Positions 7,239 to 63,545 are shown, numbered from the stretch's first letter. The stretch: 64,000 bases of DNA from Bilabrum cf. latius (GCA_965178125.1 OZ237763.1:744001-808000), one strand, 5' to 3'. Notes: generated by a model not told the origin, from the letters alone. Numbers and translations are program-made.

Positions 7239-7360
7239 GGCTTCGCGGGCACGGTGGCCGAAATCATCGGCTGGCCTTGCCCAGGCTGCACCGCACGCAA
7301 GTTGGTGCCACAAAGTGCAGGCGCTGCGACGCCACGTCCATACTGGGAGACCTGCGTTAC

Positions 7361-8782: not shown

Positions 8783-8831
<49 letters not shown>

Positions 8832-9232: not shown

Positions 9233-9356
9233 TGTGGAGACCGCAATTGCACTGCGCTCGCGCGGTTATCCTCGCTAGAGTCTACGCCAACGTGAGTGGC
9301 TCGAGCGCTGGAACCCGGAGCCGCCAATCCGTACCTTACCCATCACCTCCCGCTCT

Positions 9357-12300
9357 ATGCAGCAGGATCGCGACAAACATGGTCTTTCCTCCCGATGGTG
9401 GATAGAAAAATCACTTCAGCAGGCAGCTAGGGCGCGCGATACCTTGAGAGCTGTCGCTGCGATCACAAATAGTAGATGCTCCGGAGATGCTCGGTACTCC
9501 CTACTTCGCGCAAAACCTCCAATTGACTGTCCAGCTCCATCTGATGTTCCTGGAAAAGGTTGGAGCATAGGACCTTTGCGTGCTGCTGGTGGAAGCATCG
9601 ACAAGTTCCCGCAAGACTGGGCTCGCAGGCTTGGCATGCAGAGCGGCAACCGGGGCAAACCGACGCAAGATCATGTAGTGCTTGTATTCACTCAGCACCC
9701 TGCTATTCCTGGTGGGGAAACTTCGTTGCATGTGTCTTCTCTGGCCGCGGCTGAGCCAGGCGCGGCCGTTTAGCTATCAGCTTGGAGCAGCGACAATCGC
9801 CGGGCAGGTGACGGTGGACGAGGCCGCGGTCGCACCGGAAAGGCGACTAGCAGCCATGCCAGCGCTGCTTCGAGTGCAAAGCTTCTGGCATGGCAAGGTG
9901 AGCTAGTTAGCGTGCGCTGCAAGTCATCGTCGCCTCCCGCCCTGCCGAGCCTAGATGATGGTGCGCAGTCGGATCCACAGGCAGAAGCAGAAAGCAAATC
10001 AATGTCAGCTGCAGGAAATGTATCCTTGGCACGCCTGCCTCAAAATGGACCCCCATATGATACGATGGGCTCCAACAGCGGCGCGCTGCCCGCAGCACCT
10101 ACGGGCGCCTCTGCCCGCGCGCCTGCCCCTGCCAGTGGACCAGCACATGCCCCTGCCCCTGCCCGTGCGATGGGCGAGTGGCAAGCACTCGTTCGATTCA
10201 GAGCAGCCCCTTCTCTCGGCCAGGCACTAGTGCAGGGGGGCAGGACGGCGAGGTGGGCCCTGCACGTCGGATTTCAGGGGGCGCGGCAGCTCGCGCAGAG
10301 GCAGGGGGTCGAGGCACTGCTGCGCGGTCGCTCGTTCAGTCCCGGACTAGCCGTGGGCAGGGCGAGCGGTGCAGCAGATGAAGCAGTGGACGGCAGTGTC
10401 GATGGAAATGGCAGTAGTAGCAGCGGCGCTGGCAGTCGGGATGCAGCAGACGGTGGCAGCCCAGAGTAGACAGACCCAGACCCAGACCCAATCGACATGG
10501 CGCTTACTTCCCGACTCCCAACGTCTGCTGCTCCGGCCCCACCATCTGACCCTGCTCCTTTTGCATCCAGTACATCCTCAGTCGCATCATCTCTAGCTGA
10601 TAGGAGGAACCGCCCCCACTTCCTCATGCCGCTTCTGCTGCCGGGAGACGGCGGGGTCGGTGGTGTGGCGGGCCACATGCACAGGGAGAGGCTTCGGAGA
10701 TCGGCAAAGGAGGCTCCCGTGGATGGCCCCCGCCTGTGGCCAGACCCCCTGCAGGTGGCGGCCTATCCCTTGGGAGAGGTAGCGGATGGCAGGTTTGCAC
10801 CTGCGGGTCCCATCGATGAGTCGGGGCTGTACCAGGACCTGGTGGAGAGCAGTGGCGGTGATGACGATGACGACGATGATGATGTGGGCTCGTCCGCTCG
10901 TAGTGGTGGTATTCTAGGCAGTCCCACAGGAGCCAACGGTATCAATGGGAGTGAGAGAGACAGCGACAGCAGTAGCAGCGATGAGGAGAGGCCCAGGATT
11001 TTGGGAGGCGCGTTCGGTGCGAGGAAACAGTTGCCACCGCGCGCTAAGGGCAAGCACGCAACAGCAGCATCGGCAGCTAGATCGCAGAAACAGCAGGTTA
11101 GGATAGGAGGGCGGCGCAAAAAACGAGCCCGGCTTGACTCGGGTGCATCTGCGGGCTACCAGCAGGAGGAGGACGAGGACGAGGACGAGGACATGATGGA
11201 GGTGGACCCGCCTACCGGTCCCCTAGGCCGAGCTGAGGTAGCGGCAAAGACACGCGAGCAATATCTTCATGAAAGATCCACGATGGTGTCTAAGCTCATT
11301 GGGATGCATCCGGGCTGTTCGAAGTGGTCGCAGTGGGGCATGCGGCGCAAGCTGACGATGGGCATGAGCATGGTGCAGATGCGTACCCTGAATGCGGTGC
11401 TCGCCCGGAGGATTGGAGTGGTGATGGGGGGTCCACAGATAGGGAAGACGCGGGTGCTGGCAGCTGCGTGCGTACTGCTGCGAGAGGAATGCAAGAGGCA
11501 GAACAAATTTAGCCACAGCATATCGCCAACGACATAGTACTGGATCCCGAGCGACGTTGAGTGGCCGCAGGTGCTGGCAGTGGCACCGTCAAGGGCAGGC
11601 GTCCACCGGCTGCAGCGTGAACTGGACGCCCTCGGTGTATCCAGCATTGTCGTAGACCCAGTGCAGGGGGCAAAGGAGTTTGGAGGGGCAGGTGAAAAGA
11701 AGCCGTCCCGGGCAGAAGAGGCGCGCATCCGCAAGGCGACTACGGTGCTGTGTCAGGCGCACCACGCAGCAGCGGCTCGCTCTGCGGTGAGCTCGGCGCT
11801 GTCTGAGAGCGGACCTGTCGACTGGCGCCCCCTCATGGTCATCATCGATGACGCGCACGGGATGGATGCCAGCAGCTGCTATCTTGCGGTGCAGGGTTTG
11901 CGCGAGTGCGGTAGGGTGGTGATGGCATGCGACCTCGAGGCTCTTCGGGTGGGCATGGAGCCCGTGGGGCAGTGCAAGGCCATCGTTGATTGTGCACCGC
12001 GTGTCGGGCATGCAAAGACTGCCCGCAAGTAGGATCGGGAGCGTGGAGAAGCGGCTATCCTGCTGCGACTTGGCCTCGCTTCCTCGCTGCCTGCCGGATC
12101 AATCGATCCCGCCGTTCTGCGAGCCAGTGGCGGCATAGCAGCCAAAACAGAGAGCAGGGCCCAAGATAAGGAAAAGGACGCGTGGGGAGAGAGATCGTCC
12201 AATAGCTCGGTCCAAGACGACGATGGGCCTGCTTGGGCCCGGGCAGCCGACGCCTCGCCTGCCAATACGGATGCATGGGGTGCCGAGGTGGCCGCTGTCC

Positions 12301-15300: not shown

Positions 15301-15788
15301 AGCGGGCGCCTGGTGCAGGGACAAGGCCACACCCGGCCGATGAGCGGTCATGGGAGCGGGCGCCTGGTGCAGGGACAAGGCCACACCCGGCCGATGAGCG
15401 GTCATGGGAGCGGGCGCCTGGTGCAGGGACAAGGCCACACCCGGCCGATGAGCGGTCACGGGAGCGGGCGCCTGGTGCAGGGACAAGGCCACACCCGGCT
15501 GATGAGCGGTCATGGGAGCGGGCGCCTGGTGCAGGGACAAGGCCACACCCGGCCGATGAGCGGTCATGGGAGCGGGCGCCTGGTGCAGGGACGAGGCCAC
15601 ACCCGGCCGATGAGCGGTCACGGGAGCGGGCGCCTGGTGCAGGGACAAGGCCACACCCGGCTGATGAGCGGTCATGGGAGCGGGCGCCTGGTGCAGGGAC
15701 AAGGCCACACCGGACCTACTAGCGTGTCCGGACACGTGATCTCGATTCGGACGTAGGAGTCTATCGTGTGAGGGACGGGCGGGGCTGA
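9357..15788 (+). CDS. Degenerate UPF1/DNA2-like superfamily-1 helicase with C-terminal 18-aa repeats, 2143 aa
   Basis: One frame open for 6.4 kb except for 11 TAGs (9771, 10467, 11535, 12030, 12321, 12447, 12723, 12960, 13413, 14550, 15720); ends in TGA. SF1 motifs occur in order: VVMGGPQIGKT (Walker A), VLAVAPSRAGVHRL (Ia), VIIDDAHGM (Walker B-like), RVVMACD (III), VRHALSAGR..RLVVVGSPASL...MWATLL (VI region). Confidence 0.7.
14730..15710 (+). repeat. Coding minisatellite, 18 copies of a 54-bp unit (RPHPADERSWERAPGAGT)
   Basis: Unit AGGCCACACCCGGCCGATGAGCGGTCATGGGAGCGGGCGCCTGGTGCAGGGACA repeated with only a few substitutions per copy; no spacers. Confidence 0.95.
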
Positions 15789-41451: not shown

Positions 41452-41992
41452 TTCCAATCTGCGAACATGCACACTAGGGGTGGTAAATGAGGGCAAAGAG
41501 AAGCGTTCGCAGCCTTGCCGCAACTTGCAGACGGCACAGTGTGCAACGGCACGAACAGTAATAGAAACTCCACGCAAAACTCAGCCCCGCCGCACCACGA
41601 ACGGGTCAATATAACTCAGGAATATCGCTATTACCCCTCAGATTGCACATGCTTCAACCCAGTTTACACCAAGCCAGGCCAGATACTGAGCGCGCTATTC
41701 GGTTCACCGCAGCTTGCACCCAAACAACAGGATAGTAGCACCGCGCGATTAAGCCCGCGGGATATTCACTCAAATACAAAGACACCAACGCGCGTACAGC
41801 CAACGCATGCCTCACGTAGTCAGCAGAAGGTGCTTTCTACGAATCATCGACGTCGACTACCGGAAATCCCTTTTTTGTAATGTACACGTCACAAATAATG
41901 CAAGGCGAAATGCTGTGCTCAGTTCGCAACGCCTCAACCAGATGCGAGTTAGTACCACAAACTGTTATTAATATTTGCATAGTGTTCCATCC

Positions 41993-44900: not shown

Positions 44901-47900
44901 TGCAGGGCCAGTTGACTCGCATCGAGATGCTCCCAGAACCTGTGCGGATGGACGGGAGTGCAAGCGCGCATTCGGAGGAGGGTGGCAGGGCGGCAGTTGA
45001 GGCCGCCGCTTTGCTCCAGGAAGAGGCAGATGCTTCCAGCCTCTGTCGCGACATGCTGCTCGGCGACAGCACCCTGTCTCCTGGAGATTGCAGGCTGCTT
45101 GTGAATCGGAGGAGGAGGGGGACTGGGCAAGGTCACGCGGAGCTGCAGCTGGCGATGAGTGCTGCTTCGGAGTTCTCCATGGTCGCTGCAGTAGGCGGGG
45201 CGCGGGGTCGCTCGGGTATAGTCCCCGATGCGCTGGACTCTGCAGAGGCATGTGGCCGGTACATGGACGCCCACACAGAAGGACCTAGCCTTCCCGTGGG
45301 CCGGTTGGCTCTAGTTGACCTGCAGCCGCTGGCTGTGTCCAAGCTTCGGGCCGCACTGCGGGATCTGGACTGGAGCGGGGATGGGCGCGTGGACGAGCCG
45401 GCACTGCGTGAGCTGGGCCTGGGACACGGGGCGCGGGGCAGGGTGGGGCCCAGGCTGCTGGCGTGGATCACCACCACCAAGGGTGAGTTCGGGGGCATCG
45501 TGCGAGCCATGGTCTAGGGAGCTGCAGCTGCCAGCGCCCGCGAGGACGCCATTGCGCAGGCCGTGGATCTGCCCGGCCTGATTCGCATCGTGCTGTGCCT
45601 GGCCACGCAGGCACCGAGAGGCTGCGCCAAGGTGCTACTGAACGCAAGAGCAATCCGACTGGTGGGTCATGCAGGCGATAGTCAAGATGCAGCAGAGCTG
45701 AGGCGGCCGTATGCTGATTTGGCCGTTTGGCTCCGCGCGCAGGATTCTGCACCAGGGGGGCATGTACCAATAGATCCAGAGGGCCCAGCGGCCTCCATTC
45801 GGAGCGGTACGGCCAATTTGGCCCAGGACGAGGTGCTGGATGCTCAGCACAGCGTGAGCATTGCTCTGTTCGGTGTTGCCCCGTCGCAGTTAGCCCATCT
45901 CCTGACCATACCTCATGCAAGTGCGCAATCAGACCCCATCGGTGAGCTAAGGACTAGCGGCCTGGCTCGCTGGTCATCGACCGGACTGGCAGCTTCACTG
46001 AAGCGAAGGGCACGTTCAAACACCGGTGATGGCAGGGATTTTACGGAAATAGCAGCTGGGTCTTCCGCCGAATCCGGACTCAGTCCCAACTCTGGAGCAG
46101 GCGCAAATGGCCAGCCCGCACCGTCCGAGGGGACCGCGATTCAGTCTAGGAGAGCAGATTCGTCAAGCAGCGCGATATCCAGCGAGTCGCACGACTCGGC
46201 CGCCAGTGATGCAACCAAAGAGCTGGCGCGCGCGGCTGCAGCCAGCCGTAGGCTGCTAATCACCGCCGGGGTGCGACCCTCGAAGGCGAAGACCATCGCG
46301 GCAAAAATGACCGCTCAGCTGGACGAGGCTGGTGTTCGCTGGCGCTCCCTAGCCGCAGATGTGCAGATAGGCACGTTTGGGTCAATCACGGTGCTGCCAG
46401 GTGGTGCGCCGCACCTTGGCTCAACCCAATCCCCTGCGCTCCTCGAGCACGTCTTGGTTCTCGAGGCGCTGAGGCCAATTGTGCCACTGGGCTCCAGCGC
46501 ACATCCAAGCGACGTGCTGCTGGGAGTTGAGACCACTGCGACCTTCCCGCGCGACCGCCGCCTGCAGCGCAACCGGCTGGAAGTGCCCGATAGCCTGGAC
46601 CGGTTTGCCTTCCAGCAACAGCCGCGTCTGACTTCCAGCTACCACGCGCCTAGAGCCTGTAGGTTTGTTATCACGCAAGCGGACGGGCAGACTTTGTTCT
46701 GCACCGCCATCGTGCTGCACGTCCCCGCCGACCCAAGGCAGCTGGTAGCACACGCCGCAAACCAGATGCGGCAGGGAGTCGCTCGGTCGCTCCAGCACAG
46801 GGGTCATGCCCCGGGCCATGCCGGTGCCACTCCGCTGGGTTCTCACTACTCCATACCCATCTGGCTGCGCCAGGCGTTGCAGCGGGGAGCCGACGCAGGG
46901 GCTGAAGGCAGGGGGGCTCGCCTGTGGCGGCCTGTGGCAGTGGTAACCACGTCTCGCTCCAGGCAGTGGGACCTGCAGAAGATGGTGTTGGCGGATGCGT
47001 CCATGATCTTGGCTGTTGCTGGCACTGCGTCGGAGCAGGCCCTGAATCCAACAGATAGTGCACGAGACGCGACGAGTGGAAGGGAGCGACAGGCCGCTGC
47101 AGCAGCCCTCGCGCTGTCTGTTGCCTGCGAGGCCGTGTGCCAGCTCCCTCTCGCCATGCATATGCCAGCCGCAGGCACCACATGGCGGCTGCGCGGGCTA
47201 TTTTCAGACATTTACATAGGGCAGGACCGCCAATCTGCGCATGCTGGTCCCCGGGACCAGACCGACAGCCTATAGCTCCCGGGCTCGCTTCGAGGCCCTG
47301 GTGGCCGGCTCGAAGACTGTGGGCTGCTGTCCGTCTCACTTGCCCCGCTCGTGCTGTACTTGCGGCCCACCGATGTGATCCTGGCGTGGCTGCTCCTGGT
47401 GTGCGAGCGCAAGGTTGTGGTGTGCGGCTCGTGCAGCGAGCATGTTGTGAGCACATGCGAAGCGCTGCTGTCGCTGCTGCACCCGCTCCGGTGGGTCGTC
47501 AGCTACGTGCCAAGCCTGCCGCCGGCCTTGATCCACATCGTAAATGCGCCTAACCCTTACTTGATCGGCTGGAATGGGTCCGCCGACGAGATTTTGCTGG
47601 AGAGTGGGTAGGACCCGCCCGCCATCCTGGACATGGACGTGGGGGAGCTGGTCATCGACACCGAGACCAAGAGCCAGTACCGATTGCCGCAGCACATTAT
47701 GAAGGGGCTAAAGAACTCGCTTGACTTTGCCGAGCCCAGGGACGCAGCGCAGAGAGCTGGACAGCAAGCAGCTCGCGCCGTGGGTGTACGTACTGAAGGC
47801 GGTAACGAGACGAGCTCTAGCAACAGGCACGGGGCCGCTCAGCTGAGTGCGCTTGGGCTCATTCGTGGGGTCCGTGCGGATAGAGGGGGCGAAAGGGGTT

Positions 47901-50900
47901 CTGCTGTAGCGCCAGCTTTGCTTGTAGTGGCCATCGCGAAAACTCTCTCAGCGAATGCCAAGGCATTGATATCGGCTAGACAGGCTACGACAGAGTCAGT
48001 GGCTGATCGCAAGCCGCATGAAGGTACAGGTCCCGCGGGCGCCAGCAGGCTGTGCATGTTGGCAGCAAGCACTAGCACGCGGGGGTTCAAGGCGTGCGGC
48101 CACCCGAGTGACCGCACCGTTGAGGTGCAGCAGTAGGAATCGCCACAGCAAGAGGGTCGGCCAGAAGCCACCCCGTCAGATGTGCCACCTTTGCTGAGCG
48201 CTACCCCTCCAATAGACAAGCTACCAGCCACCGAGGACGTCTTTGTGCTGCTTCCTGGAGGAGCTGCGGTGGGGCTAGGACCAGCGTCAGTCGCGGAGTC
48301 ACCGAGCCCACCTGGCGAGCTCGAACCGCACCAAGGTCGCCGCGAGGTCAGGCAGACACAGTACAGCACGGCGTGGCAGGACGACCAGCTGCTGCCGCCC
48401 TCGCTGGAGAGAGGTATCCGGTCAGGATTCTGTGCCGCCCTCCTGGCCCTGCTGTCCAAGGCCTTAGGGCACGTGAGTATCGTTGACATGGGGCGCACCG
48501 CCGCTGCGGGAGGCAACAGTGAGGAGCCGCAAGCTGGCACAGTATTCGCGCAATGCCAGCTGGCATCCGCGTAGCTGCTGGCTGCTTGCACTTCATCTGC
48601 GGAGCGATTTCTGTTCGAATCGGTGGCTGGCTCGCAGATGTTCATGGACATGCTGCAGGAGGCGGTGCGCCCGGCGCACAGGCCCACCACGAGGATGATG
48701 CGCAAGGCCACCATGGTAATCAGGGGTGCTCCTGGAAACGGTGCCCCCGGCGGTGCAGGAACAGGGGATCGCCCGTTGCCGGTGATGGTTGGATATGGGC
48801 GTGCCGATGGCAGGCTGGTGGCTCCGAGCAGTCCTGGCCACTCGACCGACGAGGACGACGGCGCGGTCCTTGCTGTTCTGCAGCCGTGGTTTGTCGAGCT
48901 AGTGAGGACAGCGGCACGGGGTTCCAAGCAGGCAGGTCCAGCCCCTGGCATCACCGCCCCCGGCTCGCTCCTGTCACTCCCGTGGCTCAAGGCGAGCTCG
49001 AGGTCATCTGTCATGGCTGTGAGGACCAGGCAGGACTCGCCGCAGTCTGCGGCTGAAGCGGGCGCTGTCTCGCACCAGAGACACGCCAGCCCCCTCCCAG
49101 CTGGAGCAGGGACTACGCCCAGACTCGTGGGTTCACCGGACACAGATTGCTCCTCGCCCCAGCGAGCGGGCCCAGGGACGCCAATCGCGGCTGGGTCGAT
49201 GAGTCCACCGGTCATTGACGTTGATCTGTTGGGGGCTGTGCCGGATGCGGTGCTGCAAGCCCTTGCATGGCAGCCACCCGCGACTAGTGCCGGCCAGTGG
49301 GACACTGCGAGTAAGCAACGTGGACTAGCCTCTCAACGACAGCCAGCTGGGGGATCGCAAGCGCAGGACAGCACGCTACGGTCAGCTTCGACGAGGGGCA
49401 TGCAGCTGGGACGCAGCAGCAGGCGTGCAGTGGGGTACCCGCATGGTGCGGCCGGGGCCCGTGCCCTTCGATCCACGCCGCTGCGCGCCTCCCAGTCTGC
49501 CCGCAGCGTTCTGGCAGGCAGGCACTCCGCTACCCCCACACGTCATACGGAGCTGTCTCGGTCCAGCGAAGGCGTGTTGCCTCCAGAAGCCGGGACTCCC
49601 ACGTCGCGACAGGTGCTTGCCCCTGCACCATGGACTCCAATGGCTACCGCTGGGCATGCGGCAGCTTGGTCCGAGGGTAACGATCATGAAGTGGGTCATG
49701 TAGACAGGGAGAGCAGCGGTGGCGGAGAGACCGCACCCGCTGGGGATGGAGGGGCGCCTGACCCTGACAGTGGCCCTGGAGTCGGAGCGGGGCATCAAGG
49801 AGACGCAGTGGGGGGCTCGGATGGCGGGCATGCCTCGCGCTCCATGCAGGGAGCAGGGCCCAAGATGCTTGCTCGGTCACCGAGCACGGCCCGTGTGGGC
49901 GGATCCTTCCGAGTCCTGGAAGCAGCAGCAGCAGCGGCCCCCACGGATGGCATGGGCTCCGGCGACGACGACAGCGAGGACGAAGGTGAAGACGACCACG
50001 TGATGGCGGTCGATGATCATTCGCATCTTCTGGACTGCGGACAGCGAGGTGACCCGCACCCGCACCGGCAAGGACGCGGCACAGGGCCAGCACGCACGTC
50101 AGGTGCAGCAAGGGGTGGAGCCGCTGCTGCAGAGGCGAGGCAATCGCAGCATGCCCAGGCGGCCGCAGATCAGCAAAGAAGGCACTTGCAGGTGGAGGTC
50201 TAGGCGGAGGTTGGGATGGGAGCTGGCGATAAGGGGCATGCGCGGGGCCGTTCCACCTCTGCACAGCCAAGCCAGAGCCCGGATGGAGATGCGCCCTATT
50301 TGGCACCTCACATTAGTATTGGCCATGCCCAGGCGGCAGCACTGGAGCAGTGGGAGCAAGCTGCCGTGGGGTCCACCGGGCCACTGTCCCCCGGAGAGGA
50401 AACAGCTGGAGGCCTCTCCGTGTCTGGTGCTGGTGCTGGTGCTGGTGCTGGTGCTGGTGCTGGTGCTGGTGCTAGCATTGTCGGCTGTACCGCTGGGCGC
50501 GCTGTCAGACACGTGGGAGCCAGTGCTGCCTTCGACGCGGGGCACGGGTCTGGTTCAGGGGAACTCGCCACGATCGCAGAGCAGGCAGAGGCGGGAGAGG
50601 GCGCGGGCGAGAGCGAGGGCGGTGTGGATGGCGTGCTGGGCATGGTGGCCCCGCGCACGGCCCCCAGCAGCCCCATGACGATGGCCCTGCGGCAGCTGGA
50701 GATAGGTTTCATGGAGGGCGGGCCCAGGGGAGTGGATATGGGGAGCGCTGCCACGGCCAGCTCGGCGAGCGGCAGGGGCGAGGGCAGGGGCAGGGGCAGG
50801 GGCGAGGGAGAGGATGTGGATGTGCAGGGTGACGGGAGTGGGGGCCGCACTGGGAGCGGGCCCAAGCGAGGCAGTCTTGGGATGCAAATCGGGCGGAGGC

Positions 50901-51076
50901 AGAGATCAGACACACAGTTCGCTGTCTCTGAAGCTGGCCGCAGCCTCAACCCCCCGGAGGAACATATGCATGGCCAGGGCATGGAGTAGAAGCAGGGCAG
51001 GACCTAGGTCTAGGTACCTGATCCGATCCGGATAGACAGCCATGGGTGCGGGGGCTCTGCTGAGCCGGGACAATGA
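41993..51076 (+). CDS. Giant DENN-domain protein (putative Rab GEF), ~3027 aa
   Basis: One frame open for 9 kb with about 24 TAGs and no TAA/TGA until 51074. uDENN (LLEHVLVL..TFP..LDRFAF..FVITQADGQTLFCTAI), cDENN (LLVCERKVVV...EALLSLLHPLRWVVSYVPSLP..IVNAPNPYLIG) and dDENN (IRSGF...SQMFMDML) occur in order across TAG-broken ORFs. The 5' end is uncertain (possible short upstream exon from ATG 41898). Confidence 0.8.
43868..43936 (+). repeat. (GAAGAG)n microsatellite encoding poly-Glu
   Basis: Directly visible; in frame in the DENN gene. Confidence 0.9.
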
Positions 51077-51451
51077 TTCGAGATTTATGCAATGAGCTTG
51101 TACGAGGTTTTACGATCATGATGCGCGCAAGCATGCAGTAGGATAGTGTGCAGCGCTTGATCGTTCAACAGGTTGCGAAGATGAAGACAGGGCAGGGCTC
51201 AAGCGTGCTTGATCATCGCACCGTTCAACACAAGCCTAGAACGCTTCAAAACTAGCATCTTGCTTGATTAGGCTGGTCTCTAGTACTTGCGTCTGCTGTG
51301 GATCAAGGAAAAGCCGGCCTGTATCAAAAACGTGGCAGCTGGATTGTGTAGCCTATCGGTTACGCACTTTCATCCAGGCAAGAGTCTGCTGCATCTTGCC
51401 CCTGATCGTCACCTCCTTGCGAAGCAAGACTGGATTGAGTACTCTTCGGAG

Positions 51452-52759
51452 ATGTCGCAATGCAGGTCAATCTCAGACGAAGTCGTCGATCTCGGGAGCG
51501 ACGGAGACTCATGCGGGAGCAAAGGGAGCGAAAGTGAGGTGGATGCTTTAGTTGATCTTGGTATGTCTGCTGCAGCAGTTGCATTAGACTCGAGCGACAT
51601 GTCGGGCAGGTGTGCCGCAGGTGGGAAGGAGAAGGCCCGGTCTCGGCTCAAGGCTGAATCGAACGAAGCACTGCGATTTGGTGCTGCGGCCTGCTTTTCG
51701 GAAGCAGCTTGCAGCTTAATGTCGCGGACGGAGGCGCCATCATTGATGCAAGCAGGCCAAAAAGCAGGCGCAAGAGATGCTGGCAGCACCTTGGCGGGCC
51801 AGAAACGAAGCCGACCTGAGGAATGTGGGAGCGTCAGACAGCCATGCGGTAGGAGAGGGAGGACGAAGAAGAAGCGGCGGAAGGAGTCATGCAATGGTAT
51901 GCCAGTGGCCAAGTAGGAGCGCGAGAGCGGCACTGTGCCAGGATCGGTGTCAAACTTGAGGCGGTCCTTCACGATGCACAACTTGAAGCTCAAGTGCGTT
52001 GAGTGTGGGAAGGCATTCGGGCTGGCCAGCAGTCTCACGAGGCACATGTCGACTGTGCATCTGGGCGAGCGCAAGCACGAGTGTGTCGTGTGCGGGAAGG
52101 CATTCGGGGAGGCTAGCCATCTCACGAGGCACATGTTGACTGTGCATCTGGGCGAGCGCAAGCACGAGTGCGTTAAGTGTGGGAAGGCATTCGGGCTGGC
52201 CAGCAGTCTCACGAGGCACATGTCGACTGTGCATCTGGGCGAGCGCAAGCACGAGTGCGTTGAGTGTGGGAAGGCATTCGGGGAGGCTAGCCATCTCAAG
52301 ACGCACATGTCGACTGTGCATCTGGGCGAGCGCAAGCACGAGTGCGTCAAGTGTGGGAAGGCATTCGTGCTGGCCGGCAGTCTCACGAGGCACATGTCGA
52401 CTGTGCATCTGGGCGAGCGCAAGCACGAGTGCGTTGTGTGCGGGAAGGCATTCGGGGAGGCTAGCCATCTCACGAGGCACATGTTGACTGTGCATCTGGG
52501 CGAGCGCAAGCACGAGTGCGTTGTGTGCGGGAAGGCGTTCGGGCGGGCTAGCAGTCTCACGAGGCACATGTCGACTGTGCATCTGGGCGAGCGCAAGCAC
52601 GAGTGCGTTGAGTGTGGGAAGGCATTCGGGCTGGCCAGCAGTCTCACGAGGCACATGTCGACTGTGCATCTGGGCGAGCGCAAGCACGAGTGTGTCGTGT
52701 GCGGGAAGGCATTCGGGCAGGCTAGCCATCTCAACAGGCACACGTCGAGTTGCAACTAA
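51452..52759 (+). CDS. C2H2 zinc-finger protein with 9 tandem fingers and a basic NLS-like segment
   Basis: ORFs 51287-51916 and 51935-52759 share a frame across TAG 51914. Fingers are CxxCGKAFxxASxLxRHxxxxH with linker LGERKHE. Ends in TAA. The start is uncertain: the frame is open from ~51185 and the first ATG is at 51452. Confidence 0.85.
51992..52756 (+). repeat. Minisatellite-like array of 9 x 87-bp zinc-finger units
   Basis: Near-identical DNA units sharing ACTGTGCATCTGGGCGAGCGCAAGCACGAGTG. Confidence 0.92.
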
Positions 52760-52934
52760 TCGGATACTGTTGGTTCGGAATGAGTCAGGCAGGCAGCTTA
52801 GCGAGCAAGGGAGTCACGCTTCAAAATGTGTGAATGACTTGTTCTATCGATATCCCAATTTGGATTCCCAAACAGATCCCAAACGCGCGCATGCTCACGA
52901 ACCGAGTCACGACCCCTCCTCCCCCGCTGCTTGC

Positions 52935-54498
52935 TCACGAGCCCTCCTCCCCCGCTGCTCCCCCGGTGGCAGCCCCAGAGCTAGGCACTGTTCCTCCCCC
53001 CCCCTCCTGCTCCTCCTTCTTGGCAGCCTCGATCGCGAACACGAGCGCCCTGTCCACCTCCTTGGGCAAGGGGGGGAGGGCCTGCTTGGGCACAAGGAAG
53101 GTGGACAGGTCGAACAGGTCGGTGAACACCTTGTGCCGCGCCGCTGCAGACCGCAGGTAGTGGTACCCGCTGCTGCCCCCCGTGCCCATCTTGGCTCCAA
53201 GCATGCGGTGCACCATGATCGCGTGCCTCTGCCGCCACAGGGCAGACAGCTCGTCGATGTCCACTAGCAGCTGCAACAGCCGCTTCGGCTGCTACAGCAC
53301 GGGGGCATCGTGGTGCAGCATGATCAGCAGCGCCGACTTGAAGGCCTTGTAGGAGAGCCTCCTCTCGCCCGTCTCTCGCAGGGCCTCGTAGGCGGCGGGG
53401 TCGAAGAGCTGCCTGAAGTGCGCCTGCTGCTTGGCGAGGTCGGCGAGCAGCTCCTCCCGCGTCTTGTCGTCGATCGCATCGTCGCTCTTGATGTGCCGCT
53501 CGTCCTCGCTGAACATGTGCTCCAGTCCCTCGCTGTAGTACTTCCAGAAATCGAAGCGCTGCCCCGCGCTGGCCGCGATCGACTCGGCAGCCGCTCCGCC
53601 CCCGACGGCAATGGAGGCCTCCAGCTTGGCAGCAGCGTCACTCGCAGCCGTGCCACCGTCCGAAGGTTCGCCACTATCCTCTGCGGCTACCCGCTTGGGG
53701 GATGCGCACATCTCGTACTCGATCTGGTCACCGTCGCCGACTGGCTTCTTGCGCGGCTCGAACGCCTTCACTACAGGGGCACGCTACAGCCAGCCATCCA
53801 AGAGCTGCAGCAAAGATGGCTTGTCTTCTGATGCTGCGACCTTTTTGGCGTCTTCTTCTTTCAAGAACGTCTTGTAATCACGGCGGCCGTACTTCAGCCG
53901 GATGCTCTTCGGAAGCCCCAGGCGATTCTCCAGGATACGCCACTGGACCGACTAGAACCCACTTGCTGGAAAGAGAACGTCCCGAAATGTCAAGAATCCC
54001 ATCGGAGACATGGTCTCCAAGATGCTCAGCTGCTGCACGAGCACCCTCTGGATCTCGGTTACCCGGTGCAGTCTCTCGCAGATGGTCCCAATGTCCTTTT
54101 CAGGAACATGAGGCTGGCCCAGCATTTCACAAACGCTGTCAATTTCATGCAGGATCTGCTTAAACCACAACTCGTAAGTCTGCGTGGCCATAAAGGGGGT
54201 CGAAACGGCGACTATTCGAAGGATCGCTTGCACATCAAAATTCCAAAAACGAGGACAACACCGCACTATTTCTTACCTAATGAATAATGATAAACAACGT
54301 TTCATCATGAGCCTCGTTGCCAATCTGCTTGGTCACGGGGTGCTGGGCGCTCAGCACCTTGTCAAGTCCAAGGTACTCGCCGTAGTACAATGGCGACTCC
54401 AGCCGTCTCTTGTGCACCGTACTACGCCAAGCATCAGCGTCAGATGGAGCATCTGCATGATCAGCCGATGCGGTCCTTGGTGGGGTGCTCGGATCCAT
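52935..54498 (-). CDS. TDO2: Tryptophan 2,3-dioxygenase, two exons (54498-54277, 54179-52935), 488 aa
   Basis: [120 protein letters not shown]. 4 in-frame TAGs; ends in TGA. Confidence 0.95.
54180..54276 (-). other. Spliceosomal intron (97 nt, phase 0) in TDO
   Basis: CAT TAG|GTAAGA...CACGCAG|ACT TAC. Removal restores the conserved H-Q-x-Y-E-L-W-F-K-Q motif. Confidence 0.9.
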
Positions 54499-54643
54499 CT
54501 TAACGAAATGAAGCACCCCACAACCTCAGACGAAGTCAAGTTGACCGAAGGTGCGGCCCACTCGTCAGGGCAGAGATTCGGCACCACTGGCAGGCACGCA
54601 GAGATTGCAAACCCAGAAAATTAGTCAGCGCTGTAGAGCCTAG

Positions 54644-57600
54644 TCACCACAGGGGCTGCATCAGACGCACCGCAGCCGGATCTGCCAAGCTCAGCGCCGC
54701 CAGCCCCTCCCTGGCCACTGCGTCGAGCTTCCGTCGCAGCAGCTCCCGCCCAGCCGCGGTTTCCCAGGCACTCAACAGTGCCGCAGCATCGTCCTGACTA
54801 GGACCACTCGATCCTACCGTGCAGACTGCCCAAGGATCCGTGCAGGGCCCGCACCCATCCCCCATCTCGCCCTCACCCTCACCCTCACCCTGGCCCCCAG
54901 CCCCCCTGCCCCCGAAGCTTAGCAGACCCATGGCGGCCCTGCCCACCAGCAGAGGGACTCTAGGCACCGCAATGCGGTGCATCTTGGCCCGGGCAGCCCA
55001 GAGAGCCTACTGCACCACACCTGCAGCAGTACCTGCTGGCTGTCCCTGTCCCTGTCGCTGCTGTAACGCTCCATCCACCGGCAGTGCCAGCGCCCGCTCG
55101 ACGAGTGCGAGCCCCTCCCCCGCGGCATGTGTGCCTTGCGACGCATCATCCTCCTTCTTGCCCTTGCCCTTGCCCTTGCCCTTGCCCTTGCCCTTAGCTT
55201 TGTCTTTGCCTTTCGATTTGCCCTTGCTGTTGGCCTTGCTATCCCCCCCATCGGCCTCCTCCTCCCCATGCTTCTTGCCGCCATCGCCTCCTGCACCGAG
55301 TCCATCGTCCCAGCGAGACAGAGACACCGCCTCCTCCGCCTCGGCTTGCGCGATCCAATCGAGCCCCAGGGCGTCCTAGCCCACCCACGAATCACCCCCT
55401 GAGCCAGCCCCATCCTCCTCCTGATCCCCGCCCCCGGTAACCCCTGCGTGCCCCGCCCCGCCACTGACGGGATCACCCGCTTGCCTAGTGGCCCAGGCAC
55501 CGGCGCTCTGCAGCCAGGCGGTGCGCGCACCGGTGGCCTTCGCGAGCTGCTGGCTCCTCCTGCACGCCCGGGGTGTGGCACACGGCAGCAGCAGGGGATC
55601 GACCCCGAAGGCCATGGCCGCGTCAGCCAGAGAGGGGAACACGCAGGGGGCACCTCGCTTAGCCGGCCCACGCGCCCTCCTGGACGCCAGCCACGCCTCC
55701 TCCCTTTCGGGACCCCTGCCCAGCCCGCGGACCGCGCCTCGCCGCAGCACGCCATCAAAGGCTGCCAAGCCATCGGGATCAGCCGCGCCAATCCCCTCGG
55801 CGACTCCATCCGCCGCCTTCCCCTCCTCCTCCTCGCCCTCGTATGCCGGCTCTTCCTCGCTATCATACTCCACATCTGACTCCGAGTTATCCGTCAGTGC
55901 ATCGCCCTGCACTGCGGCCGCCTGCCGCACGGGGAGGGCAGGTCCGTCCCAATCCGCCAGCGAGCCCACCACGTCGGCAGGGGCCGGGTGCAGCCACAGG
56001 GGCAGGGCCAGGGGCAGACCAGCCGCAGGGGGCGGCTGCAGCCCTCGGCCGCCGAGCCCTTTGGCCTGCCCCCCGCTGCCGCCCGCATACGCCTGCCTCG
56101 CCGCTGCCTCTGCCCTCCTTCGGGCCCTCCCCAAGGCCTGCATGGCCGCCCTGCGTCTGTCCTCCTTCGCGACAGCGTCCTCTTTCTCACCGTCCTCCTC
56201 GCTGCCCTTCTCCTGGGCCTTCCCCTTGCCCTTGCCATTGCCCTTGCCAGCTGTCTTCTTCTTGCCGCACTTCCCCTTGTCCTCGACCTTGTCCTGCTAC
56301 TCCTCATCCCCAAGCGGAACCTCCCCCCGCGCGGCGCCCTCCTCCCTCATCCTCGCGGCCCTCGCCTCCTCCATCTCGGGGGGAAGCACGCTGCCCTCGT
56401 CCTCGGGGATGCCAGCGTGGGGATGCCAACCGAAGCGCATGGCGCGGCTTGCACCGCCGTGCGATGCACCATCACCATTCCCGGCGGCAGGCACGCACAC
56501 GGCGTACAGGAACAGCCCCCAGCCCAGCCCCTGCGAGGCCAGAGGTGCGCCGCCACCACCGGCACACGCGAATGCAGCGGCCGGCGCCCCGCCCGTCAGG
56601 TCTTCCGCGCCAGCAGCCCCCGTGCCCAGCACAGCCACCGAGGAACAGCCCAGAGTCGCCTCCAGCAGCTCCTGCCCACTCCACACGCGGCCCTGGGAGG
56701 ACCCAGAAGCCTCCAGCTCCACCAGCTCCTGCATCGTGGGATCCTTGCCCTTGCCCTTGCCTTTTCCGCGGCCCTTTGTGCTTCCAGCTGCCTTGCCCAG
56801 CGGCCCCGCGGTGGCTGGATCGCTGGCTCTCGCCCTGGCCAGCCTCTCCTCGGCGCCAGCCAGCAGATCCGGGGGCGCAGCGGGCAGGATCGGCTGCGCG
56901 AGTGCCAGCCGGGGCCGCATCAAGGCGAGCGGGGACACCTCCAGAGGTGCCTCCAGTGCACTCCCCATGCCAGACGCGGGCCCCGGGCCAAGGCGTACCC
57001 ATCCGGGTCCTTGCAGCGCCAGCCACGGCTGAGGTGGGGGTGTGGGGAGGATTCCAAGCGACTCCAGGGAGGGCCGGGCCGCCGTGGCAAGCAGGGCGGC
57101 CAGCAGCCCCGGCTGCAGGCGGGGGTCCACGGATGTTCCTATGGGAGCCGCAGCGAGAAGGTCCATCTCCGGCGCGCCAGTCCGCGCCCGGCCGGCCCCC
57201 AGCATGCGGCCGATGGGGGCAGGCGCCCCGGCCTGGCCAGGAGCACAGGCCCGCAGCAACACCTGCTCCTTTTCACGCCCCCATCCGGATCTGGGGCTAG
57301 ATCCCGAGCCCGAAGGCAGCGGGATTCGCTGCACGATCGTGCCCTGTACCCTCCCGTCGTCTCCCCCCGTGCGCACCGCCGCAGCCGCAGCCTCCCCCGC
57401 CGCCCCGCCCTCCCGCTCGGCCTCCTCCTCCCCGACCCCCCTGTCTCCTGCCTCCTGTCTGGCAGCCACGGAAGCAGCCGCGCCCGCCGCCAAGGCAGAC
57501 GTCTCCTCGGCGTCCTCCCCCTCGCGCCGCAGCGGAACATGCAGTCGCGCCGCGCCGCAGCCGCTCTCCACCCACCGCGCCACGGCGTCCCCCTCCCCGC

Positions 57601-60600
57601 CCATGGGTTCCAGCGCGGGCTCGAGGGGGGCCGACAGGCAGTGCCCCAGCAGCTCCGATTCCGGCTCCGGATCCTCCTGGAAGGGCCCCGGCTCGGCCAG
57701 CGCGCCAGCCCAGGCAGCGGCCTCCGGGACTTCTCCCGGGTGCATCCACAGCCCCAGGGGACAGTGGGGCGCGGGCACGGCTGCAGGGTGGGGCACGGGG
57801 ACGGCCGCCCCGCCTGCAGTCTGGCCACCAGCATTGGCAGTGGACGCAGATGTGGACGAGTCTGGGAGGCCCCTGGGTGCCCCCGGGCCCCCGAAGAGGG
57901 AAGCGAACGTGTGCTCCGGGCCCGACCCCGGCAGCACCAGGCCCTGAAGCAGCCCAAGATCGCTGGCCTCTGCTGCATGTTCTTGGCTCCTCTCCTCTGC
58001 CAGCAGCGGGCTGCTGCTCCACAGGGCCTCGGCGGCCTGCTCCTCCTCCTGCGAGGTGAGGGTCTTGCCTGCACCTGCACGTGCACCTGCACGCCCCCTG
58101 CGGCTTCTCCCAGCGCTCCTCCCCTTCCCCTTCCCTTTGTCCTTGCTCTTGCTGCTCGACTTGGAAGCGGAGGACGACAGCCGGGGGAGGGGGAAGAGAG
58201 GCATCACCGTGCAATGCGCGCGAGGGGCGGGGGGCACTGGCACGGCAGGCAGGCGCGGCCGCAGCCCGGCTTCACCGGCGGATGCTCCTTCCAGACCGAC
58301 GAGCTGCTGCTGCTTTCCCCCCTGCAGAGGCCCCCCCGAGGCACTGGAGCCCCCCCGCGCCGACGACTGCGCCGAGTCCAGCCGAGCAGACCGCAGTGCC
58401 GCCCTCGCGCTCTTGTCACCCTGCCCCCCCCGGGGGCTGTCGAAACCAACCCCTGCGCCTGCACCTGCCCCTGCCCCTGCACCCTAACCCGTGCCACCCT
58501 CCCGCCTGCCTCGCCTTCCGCTAGCTGGCTGCGATTGACCAGCCCCAGCCCTCGCGCCTGGCATGGGCGGAGGAGGAGTCGCAGCTCTGGGCCTCAGCCA
58601 CGACTCCTGCACCTCGGCGCGAGCAGCCGCGTCTGCTGCGTCTCGCGCCACCATGGCCTCCAGCGCCGCCCTTTGCTTGCCGCCCTAATCCTACCCACCC
58701 TCCCCATCCCCCCGAAGCCCCTCGCCCCCATCGGCGTCCAGCGCCTGCGCCTCCGCCGCCACCTGATCCAGCCGGTCCCTCAGGGCCCTCAGCCGGGCCG
58801 CAGCGCGCTTGCGCACCACCACCGCCCGCGCCACGGCCCTCAGTCTCGCCAGACGGGCCCTCCTCTCCGCCCACGCCCTGGACTCGGAGTCGTACATGTC
58901 AAACCGAGGGGCGCCGCGCGGCAGCACCGCGGATTGCGGAACCACCGCCACGTGGGGCGGGGCCTTCCTGCCCGCCCCAGCCTGCTGTGCCCCGACCCCC
59001 TGGCTCGCACCGCCCTCCGGCCCCCTCAGGGCAGCGAACCGCCTCCTCCTCCTGGCCCGCCCCACGGCCAGCGCCTCCGCCTCCCGCAGCACCCGCCGCA
59101 CCCTCTCCACCTCCAGCAGGTGCTCCTCCAGCGGCCTGGGCTCCCCGCGCCACTCACCACCGGCCTGAAACGCCCTCGCCCTTTCCCCCGCGCGCACTGC
59201 CTCCAGCGCCGACACCAGCACCAGCTCCCGCGTGTGCCGCCGGTCCCTCGACGCTGGAGGCAGTGCCAGCGCAGCCCCCCCGAAGATGGGCACGGGGCCC
59301 CCCAGCCCGGCCACGCCCTCCCCGCCCTGGCCCGCCCCACTCGTCACACCCTCCGCCCCATCGGGGGGCCCCAGTGCCTTGGTGGCCTCCAGCTCGTCCT
59401 CCTCCCGCTCCACCCGCTCCCTGTCCCTGCGAGCCAGCCCGCGGGTGCTGCGCCCGCTGAGCCCGAGCCCGCCTGCGGGAGGGGGCAGCCGGGCCTCGAA
59501 CGCCACCGCTGCCTCCTCCACCACCCGCACGGACCTGGGCAGCGGCTCGTGGTCGGGCGTGTTCCTCAGCGCCTCCAGGACGAAGTCGGCATCCACAGGC
59601 CTGCCCTCTGCGGCCCCGAGGGCCTGTCCCAGCCACGAGGCCGCCACTGTCTCTTGCAAGAGAGCAGCCGGTCCCACCCCGGGGCCCACGCTCCGCACGG
59701 CACGGTGGCCACCCCCCTCGCCCTCGCCCTCCCCGTCCTCCTCCTCGCTGTTGGCCCCGCCCGCTTGCGCCCCCGCCAGCTTCCTCTGCGCCTCTCTCTC
59801 CTGCCGCCTCAGCGCGCGCTAGGTCGCCACTCGAAGAGGCACCTCCGACGCCTTGCCCCTGCCCGGCCGGTCTGACAGCAGGCCGGTCATGGCGGCGTAC
59901 GACTTGGTGTCGGCCGGCACGCGCACCCCGTCCACCACGGTGAATCTCACCGCCCGCTCCGCCTCCGCCCGCGCCGCCCTCTCCCCGCCCAAGTCCTCCG
60001 GCCTCACCACCAGCGCCCCCGATCGCACCAGCTCACGGTCAGCCCGCCTGGCCGCCCGGGCCCTCTCTGCCCTCATCGTGGTGGCCCTGCGAGCACCTGC
60101 CGCCTCCAGGGCGTGCCCACCCGGGTCATCGGCCGCCCCTGCGCCCACCCTCCGCCGAGAGGCAGCCAGCTGCACCTCTGTGCCCACGTCCATGGGCCTG
60201 AAGGCCAGCTGCGGCTGGGTGAGGGAGGTTGCTGTTCCCTGGCCTCTCCCGTGGGACGGGGGCAGGGGCGCACCCACGGGAATGCCCGAGCCTGTGAGGT
60301 CGCACGTGTACGGCACGAAGCCGAACTGGTCGCACTGCACCTGCAACTGCGAGGTGCACGTGACGGCGTCCGAGGGGCGAAACGTCACTTGTACCCGCAC
60401 CTCGCCGCGGGCAGGCACCGTGCCCTCTGCGGGGAACACGCGGAAGGCCGGGTGGGGCATCACGGTCTCCAGCTTGAACCCGAATGAGGCATCCGAATCC
60501 GACCGGAGCACCATCCGCCGGGAGGACTCGATGCCCAGCTCGCAGGGCCCGAAGTCCACCCGCCTCGGTACTCCCAGCCTGCCCAGCGACGGGTGTGCGT

Positions 60601-61372
60601 GCAGCTGCACCGCCAACCAAGGCGTGGGTCCGTCATCACTCGTCACACCGCTGCCCGCCCTACCCCTGGAGGTTCCGGGCATCAGCCTAACCCGGAACTC
60701 GTCCGTGTGGTAGGCCCCTGTTCCATGCTCCTCTTCCGCAGCGCTGCCAGAGGGGGGCGCCCTGTACACCACGATCGCTTCCTGGGTCATGCCGGGGGCG
60801 ATCAGCCCCGCTGCAGTGTACTGCACCTCGAACAGCCCGTCCTCCCCGTTGGGCGGCCTCAACTGCACCCGCGCCGGACCGCTGCTGGCGTTCAGCACCC
60901 GCACCCTCTGCTCCGCAACGGAGCCTGCAGGCACGCCAGCAAAATGAACAGACTATGGGATTACTCTGAGCGCGCCTTTGGACGCGTGTGGCTGATCCCC
61001 ATGGCGCGGTGCACCGTCTTCGAGCAAGCCGTCGTCTACCGGGCTGTCTTTGCTCTCCTCGCCGTCACCACCCGCGTATGTTGCGCTAAACAGGGCCTTT
61101 CCGGACGGTGGTAGTGGAACAGACGCGTCTGCGTCGAGGGCTGATCGTACTGCCCTTGAGCGGCGCACGAACGGGATCGCCTTGCTGCCGGCCGGTGCCC
61201 TCATCCTGCGCTGTTGCAGAGCTGTAGATACCACGGAGCTGGATGGCTCCAATCCGTCGACACCTAGTAGCATTTTAGAAGACTCCTTCCCCTGTGCGTT
61301 GTCATCGATGCCGCTCAGACCGACAGAATCATCGGAGAGATCGTGCTCGACCGAAGCGTGGTCCAGTGACAT
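54644..61372 (-). CDS. CFAP221: Cilia- and flagella-associated protein 221 (PCDP1)-like, 2242 aa
   Basis: Seven ORF fragments share one frame, joined across 8 TAGs. Two N-terminal ASH/Ig-like domains (VIP*SVHFAG..VRVLNAS..IAPGM..LHAHP; PHPAFRVFPAEGTVPARG..VTFRP..DQFGFVPYTC), PRFDMY...W..R...L.R....R..VVRKRAAARL (IQ-like helix) and DALTDNSESD match my recollection of PCDP1. Ends in TGA. Confidence 0.75.
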
Positions 61373-61640
61373 CCCCCTCGGGTTAAAATGAGTTCGTCAA
61401 GCAGCCCCGGTATAGTTGCGTCTATGAATAGCTTAATGTAGGTCACCGTGAGACGTAAAGTCTCAGCCGAGCTTCAATATCGTGCAAATCAAGTCCTAAC
61501 GAATAGATCAGTATTGCGGAACCTCTGTTTGCGCGGCGACAATGCATGGTCCGGACTCCGGAGCATTAATTCCGCCCCCATATTTTTCCGGAGATGCAAC
61601 TATTCCCTGCAGCCTATTGAATCGAGGGCTTTAAGACGCT

Positions 61641-63545
61641 ATGGTGCATCTGGCGCACCTGGTTATTGTTCAAGATGGATTCTTTGGGTCCACCGGGTCA
61701 ATGGAGCGACTGTCTGGTCTCTTGAAAAAGGTCCTTGGAAATGATGTCATTGTAATGAGATCGTGCTCGTCCCATCCCTGGGGAGCCTATCCATCTGTGG
61801 CAGGCACTTTAGACGGAATCCCTGCTGCCGGCTGCAGACTTGCCGATGAAATTGAGCGAAGCTTGCACGGAGCGCTGCGGTCGGTGGTCGGCGGTGACTT
61901 TCAGAAGAGCGGAGGTGCCGTCCACCAAGCGTGCAAGATAGCGTTGAGCCTGGTAGGTATGTCACTGGGGGGTCTGACATGTAGGTATGCAATGGGCGAG
62001 CTGGTTCGCCGCAGCGATGCAATAGGTGCCAGCATGAGCAGCTCAAGCCAGGGCAGCGGGCAAGCCGAGAAGACAACGTTGAACTCGATATGGGTAGGGT
62101 ACCGCCGCGGATTCGGAGTAGTGCGTGAAACGAGTCAGCGAAAATCACCTGGCGACGCCCTGCTCCAGGAGCCAGCGCCAGTCCTCGTCCAGCTGCGCAA
62201 CTTCGTCTCCCTGGCGAGTCCCCACCTTGGGGTCCACGGGGCCGTGCCGGGGTGCCTGGGACGATTAGCGCACGCGGGCTACGGGGGACCCACCGTGCAG
62301 CAGCTGCTAGTTGTGGACGACGCCGGAGAGAAGGAGAGGCAGCTGCAGGGGGAGTACACAGCTGCGAGGCCCAATGTGCTAGGCAAGGACAAGGACAAGG
62401 GCAAGGGGAAGGGAAAGAGAATGAGCGAAGCATAGGGTGAACTGAGTAGGCTGCGATCTAGCGGTCGATTACTGGCGCAGATGGCGGTGCCAGGGGGCGT
62501 GTTTGGCCGTGGATGGGGCTCCTTCAGGCGGCGGGTGCTGGTGGGGCACGAGGTGTGCGACTCGAGAGTGCCGCTGTGGTCCTCGACTGTCGCTGGGAGG
62601 CCGCTGCAGCGGGGTATTGGTGGCAATCGCCATGGTAATGCGGTGGAGGGCGATGAGCCCAGCGAGGTGCATGGAATTACCTCTGCTGCTGGTGGCAGCG
62701 GGGCTGTTGCGCCATCGTGGCAGCTGCAGCTGGTCAGAGCCCATGCGCTAGGAGTGCAAGCCGCTTTTTCAGCGCCGAGTGGGGGGCCGAGCAGCAGCCA
62801 GTCCAGTGAGGCTCGCAGGGTTGGAACGAGGAAGCACAGGAACTCTGGCAGCAGCACCACTGCAGTCGAGCCGGCGGAGCTCCCGCCACGGTCTACATCC
62901 CCAGGCCGTGCGGAATCCGCTGCGCTGCATGGGCCGATTGCAGCGGGGGAGCATGTCACAGGCACGTTCTGGGTCAGGCACGGGTCAGGTGCAGAGGCAG
63001 GCAGAGACGCCAAGGATACGGGGTCTGCTGCAGAGGGAGCACCCGACACGGAGTGGGGCATGGGTCAGGTAGCTGAGGCCCTGCTGTCTGGTTTGAAGCA
63101 CACTTTTGGGTACATCGCGAGCATTCGAGCGGACAGAGGCGCCGGCACGGGCGGACACAGTGGTGGTCGCAGCGGCAGCCCATCCGCCGGCGCCGCCCTG
63201 TCGCACGATCTCAAGGAGGCAGAGCGACTCGCACCTCCACCGGACAGGGCAGACGATGAGGGCCAGTCCATGGCCCTCGAGACGGCGGCTGCCTCTGGCC
63301 TGTGGGCCGCAGCCTAGGCTCACAGCGGGCCGCAGGGAGACACTGCCGTGGTGCTGCTGCGGGCCGATGGGGAGCCGTGCCTGGCGGGGACTCACGCGAG
63401 GACAGCCATGAAGTGCGAGCTGCTGGTTGGATTGGAGGCAGCCCGGCCGTGGCTGCCGCTCGAGTGCTGCCGCCGGGCAGTGAGATGCGATGGAGGGCTG
63501 CACATGCAGGACCTGCAAGGAGTAGCTGCACTGATGTTGCGATGA
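61641..63545 (+). CDS. DUF676-family putative lipase/serine esterase, 634 aa
   Basis: HLVIVQDGFFGS, TLDGI...G.RLADEI, LSLVGMSLGGLTCRYA (nucleophile elbow), NFVSLASPHLG, then after TAG 62433 FRRRVLVG...DSRVP. Second TAG at 63315; ends at TGA 63543. Confidence 0.8.

Follow-up and report, generated by a model that had tools for sequence, protein, structure and literature searches.

In-frame TAG codons of a predicted tryptophan 2,3-dioxygenase gene point to UAG as a glutamine codon in a GC-rich nuclear genome

How are four in-frame TAG codons read in a nuclear gene that otherwise has the sequence of a conserved enzyme? The question is raised by a stretch of 64,000 nucleotides (nt) from Bilabrum cf. 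latius (GCA_965178125.1, OZ237763.1:744001-808000), which was analysed as a whole and is called the window below; its G+C (GC) content is about 64%. On its minus strand, at 52935-54498, lies a predicted gene for tryptophan 2,3-dioxygenase (TDO), an enzyme class that carries out the haem-dependent oxidation of tryptophan to N-formylkynurenine. Our analysis indicates that UAG is very probably a sense codon for glutamine (Gln) in this GC-rich nuclear genome, where UGA still ends translation, as UAA probably does. The four UAGs of the TDO message itself are, judged by comparison with related proteins, almost certainly read as Gln, two of them at nearly invariant Gln positions.

The TDO gene and its spliced transcript

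An earlier note, made from the sequence alone, had described four TAGs in a TDO gene at 54277, 53952, 53784 and 53292, and both coordinates and contexts agree with the sequence at all four. The gene is laid out as follows.

54277..54498, minus strand: TDO exon 1, from the ATG (54498-54496) to the in-frame TAG (54279-54277); 222 nt, 74 codons
54180..54276, minus strand: TDO intron, 97 nt, GTAAGA...CAG, with GT..AG ends, phase 0, 48% GC
52935..54179, minus strand: TDO exon 2, 414 codons plus the TGA stop (52937-52935)
54277..54279, minus strand: TAG 1, last codon of exon 1, before TYELW
53952..53954, minus strand: TAG 2, in PASGF-TAG-SVQWR
53784..53786, minus strand: TAG 3, in GWL-TAG-RAP
53292..53294, minus strand: TAG 4, in PVL-TAG-QP

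The whole enzyme occupies 489 codons in two exons and contains four in-frame TAGs. Exon 1 ends ...ATT CAT TAG, with TAG 54279-54277 as its final codon, and exon 2 opens with ACT TAC GAG TTG TGG (TYELW); because exon 1 measures 222 nt, that is 74 codons, the splice is in phase 0. By similarity to the family profile and to chains of known structure, the gene is a predicted tryptophan 2,3-dioxygenase of Pfam family Trp_dioxygenase (PF03301). Exon 1 matches PF03301 with an E value of 6.6e-10 (39.3 bits, gathering cut-off 34.9), and exon 2 matches it with an E value of 1.7e-82 (278 bits, same cut-off). Fifteen distinct sequences in the PDB match the TDO at E <= 0.001; exon 2 is colinear with solved TDO chains across its TAGs (best E 2.2e-75), and the motifs YELWFKQ and PASGF.S align between the two. 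The GC content at codon positions 1, 2 and 3 (GC1/2/3) is 0.64/0.42/0.80 in exon 2.

The solved chains are of the long form (355-403 residues) and the match to them is full length; the protein encoded here differs from them in having a ~70-residue insertion between the conserved halves, in addition to its four TAG codons. This insertion (about 53560-53770, minus strand) is rich in A, G, S and E and lies between the two Pfam stretches of exon 2. It is present in the transcript contigs described below and, in changed form, in two relatives of the protein (P0153 and P0001), and is therefore not a missed intron.

Expression of the gene was assessed with contigs of public sequencing runs, among the runs X1-X8 that contain this sequence, mapped to 52760-63450. 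None of the listed runs is on record as RNA, the label 'RNA' of X6-X8 is only guessed, and X7 also carries the label 'probably DNA'; what speaks for a transcript is the splicing visible in the contigs themselves, not the run labels. The X6 contig (1399 nt; 52991-54179 and 54277-54486) joins 54179 to 54277 and skips exactly 97 nt, whose ends read CT..AC on the plus strand and hence GT..AG on the minus strand. An identical joint, again with exactly 97 nt skipped, is found in the X7 contig (1380 nt; 53023-54179 and 54277-54499). Both contigs show 0 letters differing from the genome, and there is no further joint within exon 2 in either. The contig from X1, a run whose kind is not on record and which contains the window's sequence at a share of 1.00, is collinear over 52760-55145 and retains the intron. 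No variant letters were present at the TAG sites in the sequencing runs. The spliced contigs show that the predicted intron is real and that all four TAGs are in the mature message, unedited to CAG. The TDO gene is intact, transcribed and spliced, and is neither a silent pseudogene nor edited; the earlier note had raised the prospect of an unexpressed pseudogene, which the spliced X6 and X7 contigs exclude.

The mapped sequence (52760-63450) also recurs, with 0 or 1 differing letters, in runs that carry four organism labels (A-D) and come from four studies. Small shares of the window sequence are found in runs labelled as algae, protist and marine metagenome as well, which is no evidence of habitat. 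Cultures of other organisms may often contain this one as an associate.

Residues opposite the TAG codons

Two sets of homologues were used to ask which amino acid the TAGs replace. A HMMER pass over 1.84 billion representatives recovered 2906 TDO relatives at E <= 0.001, and the best 150 of these 2906 were aligned with the spliced protein so that the columns at the TAG sites could be tallied. At TAG 54277 the column is Q in 119 of 123 non-gap sequences (R 2, C 1, A 1). At TAG 53952 it is Q in 139 of 144 (E 3, H 1, S 1), and this position is also Q in all four solved chains shown. The column at TAG 53292 is more mixed, with Q in 73 of 150, H in 36, N and S in 10 each, others in 21 and E in 0. 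The remaining column, at TAG 53784, prefers glutamate (Glu) and is taken up below with the points that count against Gln. The earlier note had anticipated this pattern of three TAGs aligned to Gln and one to Glu, and its motifs H-Q-x-YELWFKQ (Q 119/123), PASGF-Q-S (Q 139/144) and WL-E-R (E 95/147) are those of the wider family. Its PRF-Q-xP fared less well: the column is of the Q-majority type (73/150), but the motif is not fixed, given the frequency of H, N and S.

The preference for Q columns is unlikely to be accidental. A Q majority is confined to 14 of the 366 scored columns. TAG sites account for three of these, and CAG or CAA codons of the gene itself for six. Columns with at least 90% Q number only three, two of which are TAG sites, while 0 of the gene's own 29 scored Glu sites falls in a Q-majority column. 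By our own arithmetic, the chance that three of four random sites land in Q-majority columns is ~2e-4. Summed over the four columns, the log10 likelihood is -1.74 for Q, -7.63 for A, -7.67 for S, -8.41 for E and -10.34 for L. The tally bears out the proposal that Gln is far likelier than Leu, Trp or Tyr and that Glu is only a minor alternative.

Closer relatives of the TDO came from a word-indexed search of 5.8 billion proteins, in which 8000 candidates were scored and the best 120 listed. All relatives compared here are known as proteins alone, and their Q residues are assumed to be CAG or CAA, the genes of the collection presumably having been called under codes that treat TAG as a stop. Three sites outside the TDO gene enter the comparison.

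11535..11537, plus strand: in-frame TAG in a second gene, within the P-loop/helicase-like part of the open reading frame (ORF) 8913-15788
11892..11894, plus strand: CAG (Gln) codon, opposite the end of the ORF of relative P0271
47273..47275, plus strand: in-frame TAG of the DENN-domain ORF 41972-51076, opposite the end of the ORF of relative P0151

The closest relative, P0153, is a protein of 423 amino acids from a 2743-nt assembled contig and is 95.9% identical over 418 aligned residues. Its gene was called on genomic DNA, because its start ATG falls inside the position of the TDO intron here. P0153 has Q at 3/3 exon-2 TAG sites, including the column in which most TDOs have Glu; as Q makes up 21 of its 423 residues, three chance matches would have a probability of ~1e-4 (own arithmetic). 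A more distant protein, P0001 (74% identical), has Q, A and Q at 53952, 53784 and 53292, and P0100 (83.5% identical over 122 residues) has Q at TAG 53292. For the second gene, ORF 8913-15788, P0271 (85.3% identical over 233 amino acids) has Q opposite TAG 11535. The residue opposite a TAG is thus Q in 7 of 8 pairings drawn from two genes, and at 4/4 distinct sites the relative closest for that site has Q.

The ends of the relatives' ORFs are informative as well. P0151 (90% identical) stops exactly at TAG 47273 here, and P0271 stops where the genome here has CAG 11892. Both ends fit in-frame TAGs that the relatives themselves would carry and that were presumably read as stops by the gene caller.

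Among the best 120 listed TDO matches, those above 60% identity are only assembled contigs and one JGI record, none with an NCBI/nr source exceeds 53% identity, and the best with a eukaryote-naming source, a hypothetical protein from Cafeteria roenbergensis, reaches 48%. When metagenomes were scanned with the TDO protein, 80 loci were retained, with a best-segment identity of <=54% and no close relative among them. The protein search with the DENN-domain ORF of 3034 amino acids gave only the fragments P0151 and P0152 among 8000 candidates, neither of which spans a TAG site; the small number of matches is probably due to low-complexity words swamping the search.

Stop codons across the window and competing readings

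The stop codons of the whole window give a similar picture. With TAG as sense the longest ORFs reach 3034, 2515, 2291 and 2250 amino acids, compared with 1331 under the standard code and 2015, 1407 and 1273 when TGA is read as sense instead. Reading through the rare TAA leaves ORF lengths almost unchanged. Although the window has fewer TAGs than TGAs, it is the removal of TAG that yields the longest frames. Across 17 ORFs, TAG occupies 124 of 19,696 in-frame codons (0.63%), close to its off-frame frequency of 302 in 39,358 (0.77%), and single long ORFs contain 14 to 27 TAGs. TAA occurs in frame three times (90/39,358 off frame) and TGA 13 times (552/39,358 off frame), in each case as closing codons only, counts that are partly circular as the frames were defined by TAA and TGA. 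Of the ORFs that end within the window, 16 in number, TGA closes 13 and TAA three. If TAA stood to TAG as CAA to CAG (189:635), ~37 in-frame TAAs would be expected beside the 124 TAGs (own arithmetic); no internal TAA was found in the 19,696 codons of the gene ORFs in the 64-kb window. Only short stretches, whose GC is flat across codon positions, are gained by real gene frames when TAA is read through. No use of UAA or UGA as a sense codon was seen within the window; given its small size, very rare sense TAAs may still exist in the genome.

A number of observations do not sit easily with Gln. The column at TAG 53784 has an E majority (95/147; A 21, S 11, Q 6, others 14). Among the 248 neighbours of the 124 TAGs, 28 are Glu and 15 Gln, while locally matched Gln codons have a mean of 18.2 Glu neighbours (P = 0.018 for >=28) and matched Glu codons 26.6. 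For TAG, a context classifier places E at the top and Q in fourth position; it is a weak one, naming 22 of 51 ordinary codons correctly and ranking Q fifth for CAG. Both solved DENND1 chains have Leu opposite TAG 47609 of the DENN domain, where the sequence is unconserved and the alignment uninformative. The ORF of P0152 ends opposite a GAG here, at an end that aligns poorly. The first ~450 codons of ORF 41972-51076 (41972-43320, plus strand) contain 11 TAGs at GC1/2/3 of 0.55/0.49/0.57; this part of the 3034-amino-acid DENN frame is probably non-coding, and because some TAGs thus stand in stretches without coding signal, the figure of 124 overstates the coding TAGs. The evidence is further confined to two genes in one 64-kb window. 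The neighbour, classifier and DENN points are rated far below the evidence of the columns and relatives. The Glu-rich surroundings may also have an explanation with TAG as Gln: new TAGs could arise from GAG by a single G-to-T change, a mild Glu-to-Gln replacement, so that acidic regions that evolve fast would gather young TAGs. A search of the tandem repeats for paralogous positions with TAG against CAG or GAG found no TAG within any repeat unit.

Some of these observations favour UAG as a Glu codon, a meaning reported for some ciliates and for UAR (UAA and UAG) in Blastocrithidia. Besides the column at 53784, the observed 28 Glu neighbours lie nearer the value for matched Glu codons than that for matched Gln codons, several TAGs adjoin runs of E, and the classifier puts E first. 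The other three TDO columns, however, contain E in only 0/123, 3/144 and 0/150, so that the likelihood for E falls to -8.41 against -1.74 for Q, and none of the gene's 29 own Glu sites behaves in this way by standing in a Q-majority column. The 96%-identical P0153 has Q even in the E-preferring column and Q at the other two exon-2 sites, and the second-gene site at 11535 is also Q in a relative. We consider Glu very improbable. A different reading accepts Gln within genes and supposes that UAG also acts as a context-dependent stop, like the codons of codes that lack a dedicated stop, or that it is only read through inefficiently. The ORFs in our counts were defined with TAG as sense, and some genes of the window may end at TAG. 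One candidate is TAG 38947-38949, just past the second cNMP-binding domain of a kinase-regulatory-like ORF; proteins of kinase-regulatory type often end just after that domain. The 96 codons past this TAG nevertheless keep a coding-like GC1/2/3 of 0.80/0.60/0.81, and TAG occurs at about the same rate in frame as off frame. Four TAGs in a 489-codon enzyme and 14 to 27 in the long ORFs would be intolerable if reading were inefficient. Such ambiguity is in our judgement unlikely, and it touches termination and leaves the amino-acid assignment unaffected.

Hardly any room is left for the view that the TAGs are true stops, whether in a decaying TDO pseudogene, in chance GC-rich frames or with RNA editing to CAG. 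It is true that high-GC DNA yields long spurious frames, and that TGA as sense also lengthens ORFs (2015, 1407 and 1273 amino acids). The frame and the family match nonetheless run across all four TAGs at an E value of about 1e-82, the gene is transcribed and spliced, and the spliced contigs show 0 differences at the four sites and hence no editing. The TAGs also stand in Gln columns and not at random, and it is the removal of TAG, the rarer codon, and not of TGA that gives the longest frames.

Related codes, a possible route and the neighbouring genes

Changes of the nuclear genetic code are rare. Most known UAR reassignments are in AT-rich genomes, and Gln is the commonest meaning of a reassigned UAG. 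The code found here looks like that of the group in which UAG alone encodes Gln and UAA is a stop, formally NCBI table 15, and matches that group in kind. Its members, as named in passages of PMC5304391 and PMC11687900, are the fornicate Iotanema spirale, the ciliate Protocruzia tuzeti and two phyllopharyngean ciliate lineages. The window has in common with them UAG at Gln positions, the lack of UAA inside genes and UGA as a stop. It differs from I. spirale, in which UAA is the predominant stop according to PMC5304391; here TGA closes 13/16 ORFs and the GC content is ~64%. The genes here contain GT..AG introns, and they include C2H2 zinc-finger arrays as well as a CFAP65-like gene of flagellar type.

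Both UAA and UAG encode Gln in many ciliates, in ulvophycean green algae, in Hexamita and Streblomastix and in Amoeboaphelidium protococcarum, according to PMC11687900, PMC5304391, PMC6299283 and PMC2984419; for the last of these organisms, an aphelid, the passages of PMC6299283 state that TAG and TAA appear to encode Gln. This code (NCBI table 6) shares UAG as Gln with the window, and a suppressor-like tRNA-Gln and an altered eRF1 would likewise be expected with it. The window differs in having no TAA inside its gene ORFs, three of which are closed by TAA. Table 6 was accordingly tried and rejected for the window, on 0 internal TAAs in 19,696 codons and on read-through that adds only flat-GC pieces.

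UAG has taken on other meanings elsewhere. Passages of PMC11687900 and PMC5304391 name Leu for the rhizarian exLh and for one ciliate, Ser for the green alga Scotinosphaera, and Glu, together with UAA as Lys, for one oligohymenophorean ciliate. These codes resemble the present one in that UAG is decoupled from UAA, while the TDO columns disfavour their amino acids (S -7.67, E -8.41, L -10.34). The Glu code was likewise tried for the window and rejected, E being the majority in only 1/4 columns and P0153 having Q at each of the three sites that could be matched. Codes that give UAG and UAA different meanings are rarer still than nuclear code changes in general, and only a handful are named in the passages of PMC11687900 and PMC5304391.

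We found no described case of UAG as Gln in a GC-rich, stramenopile or heterotrophic-flagellate organism in the open-access literature, supplements excluded. What makes the locus interesting is not so much the amino acid as the finding of a UAG-only reassignment in a non-ciliate genome rich in GC. If true, a UAG-only change at ~64% GC, with TGA as the main terminator, would be a clean natural example of codon capture. There is also a practical side: standard-code gene prediction for this organism breaks at every TAG, as shown by the fragmentary ORFs of relatives in public protein sets, and translation with TAG as Q is needed for annotation.

Other UAG and UAR reassignments suggest how the code might work and how it might have arisen. 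UAG would be read by a tRNA-Gln that carries the anticodon CUA and probably descends from a normal tRNA-Gln, and eRF1 would no longer recognise UAG. No tRNA gene was found in the window by a tRNA scan. Along a codon-capture route, GC pressure would have made UGA the usual stop and so freed UAG. The ordinary Gln codons of close relatives at TAG sites here suggest that synonymous turnover between CAG and TAG, by C-to-T and T-to-C transitions, may be ongoing. P0153 has ordinary Gln at three TAG sites, while other TAGs appear to be shared with relatives, as would be expected of a code in flux. We put forward tentatively, as a possibility that we rate below even chances by some way, that these features together reflect an independent, undescribed UAG-only-to-Gln reassignment in a GC-rich flagellated non-ciliate, reached by codon capture and still in flux, the Glu excess marking young TAGs derived from GAG.

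Around the TDO gene, Pfam domains on the long frames comprise protein kinase, DENN, cNMP-binding, CFAP65/ASH-type Ig, DUF707, DUF676 and SAP. Further features of the window are these.

8672-8863, plus strand: (GGTGCT) repeat, 32 copies, a Gly-Ala run within frame 7040-9232
14725-15711, plus strand: 54-bp tandem repeat, 18.3 copies, 95% match, with the 18-residue unit RPHPADERSWERAPGAGT
51185-52759, plus strand: C2H2 zinc-finger array gene with an 87-bp tandem unit, 8.8 copies, linker HLGERKHEC; TAA stop
54644-61396, minus strand: frame of 2250 amino acids with PapD-like, ASH and CFAP65-type Ig domains near its start

The zinc-finger gene is convergent with the TDO gene, its TAA lying ~175 nt from the TDO TGA, and its ORF contains three TAGs, all upstream of the array. 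The 54-bp repeat lies at the end of the frame 8913-15788, which is 2291 amino acids long. The CFAP65-like gene is of a flagellum-associated type, and its predicted domains suggest that the organism builds a flagellum or cilium. Within this gene, at 55973-56329 and 58115-58828, the summed contig depth jumps to hundreds or more in each of the four runs, and joints and loose ends are numerous; both are low-complexity stretches of the gene with matches to many other contigs. In the ESM Atlas, the cNMP-binding ORF fell among generic cNMP-binding clusters from mixed eukaryotic phyla.

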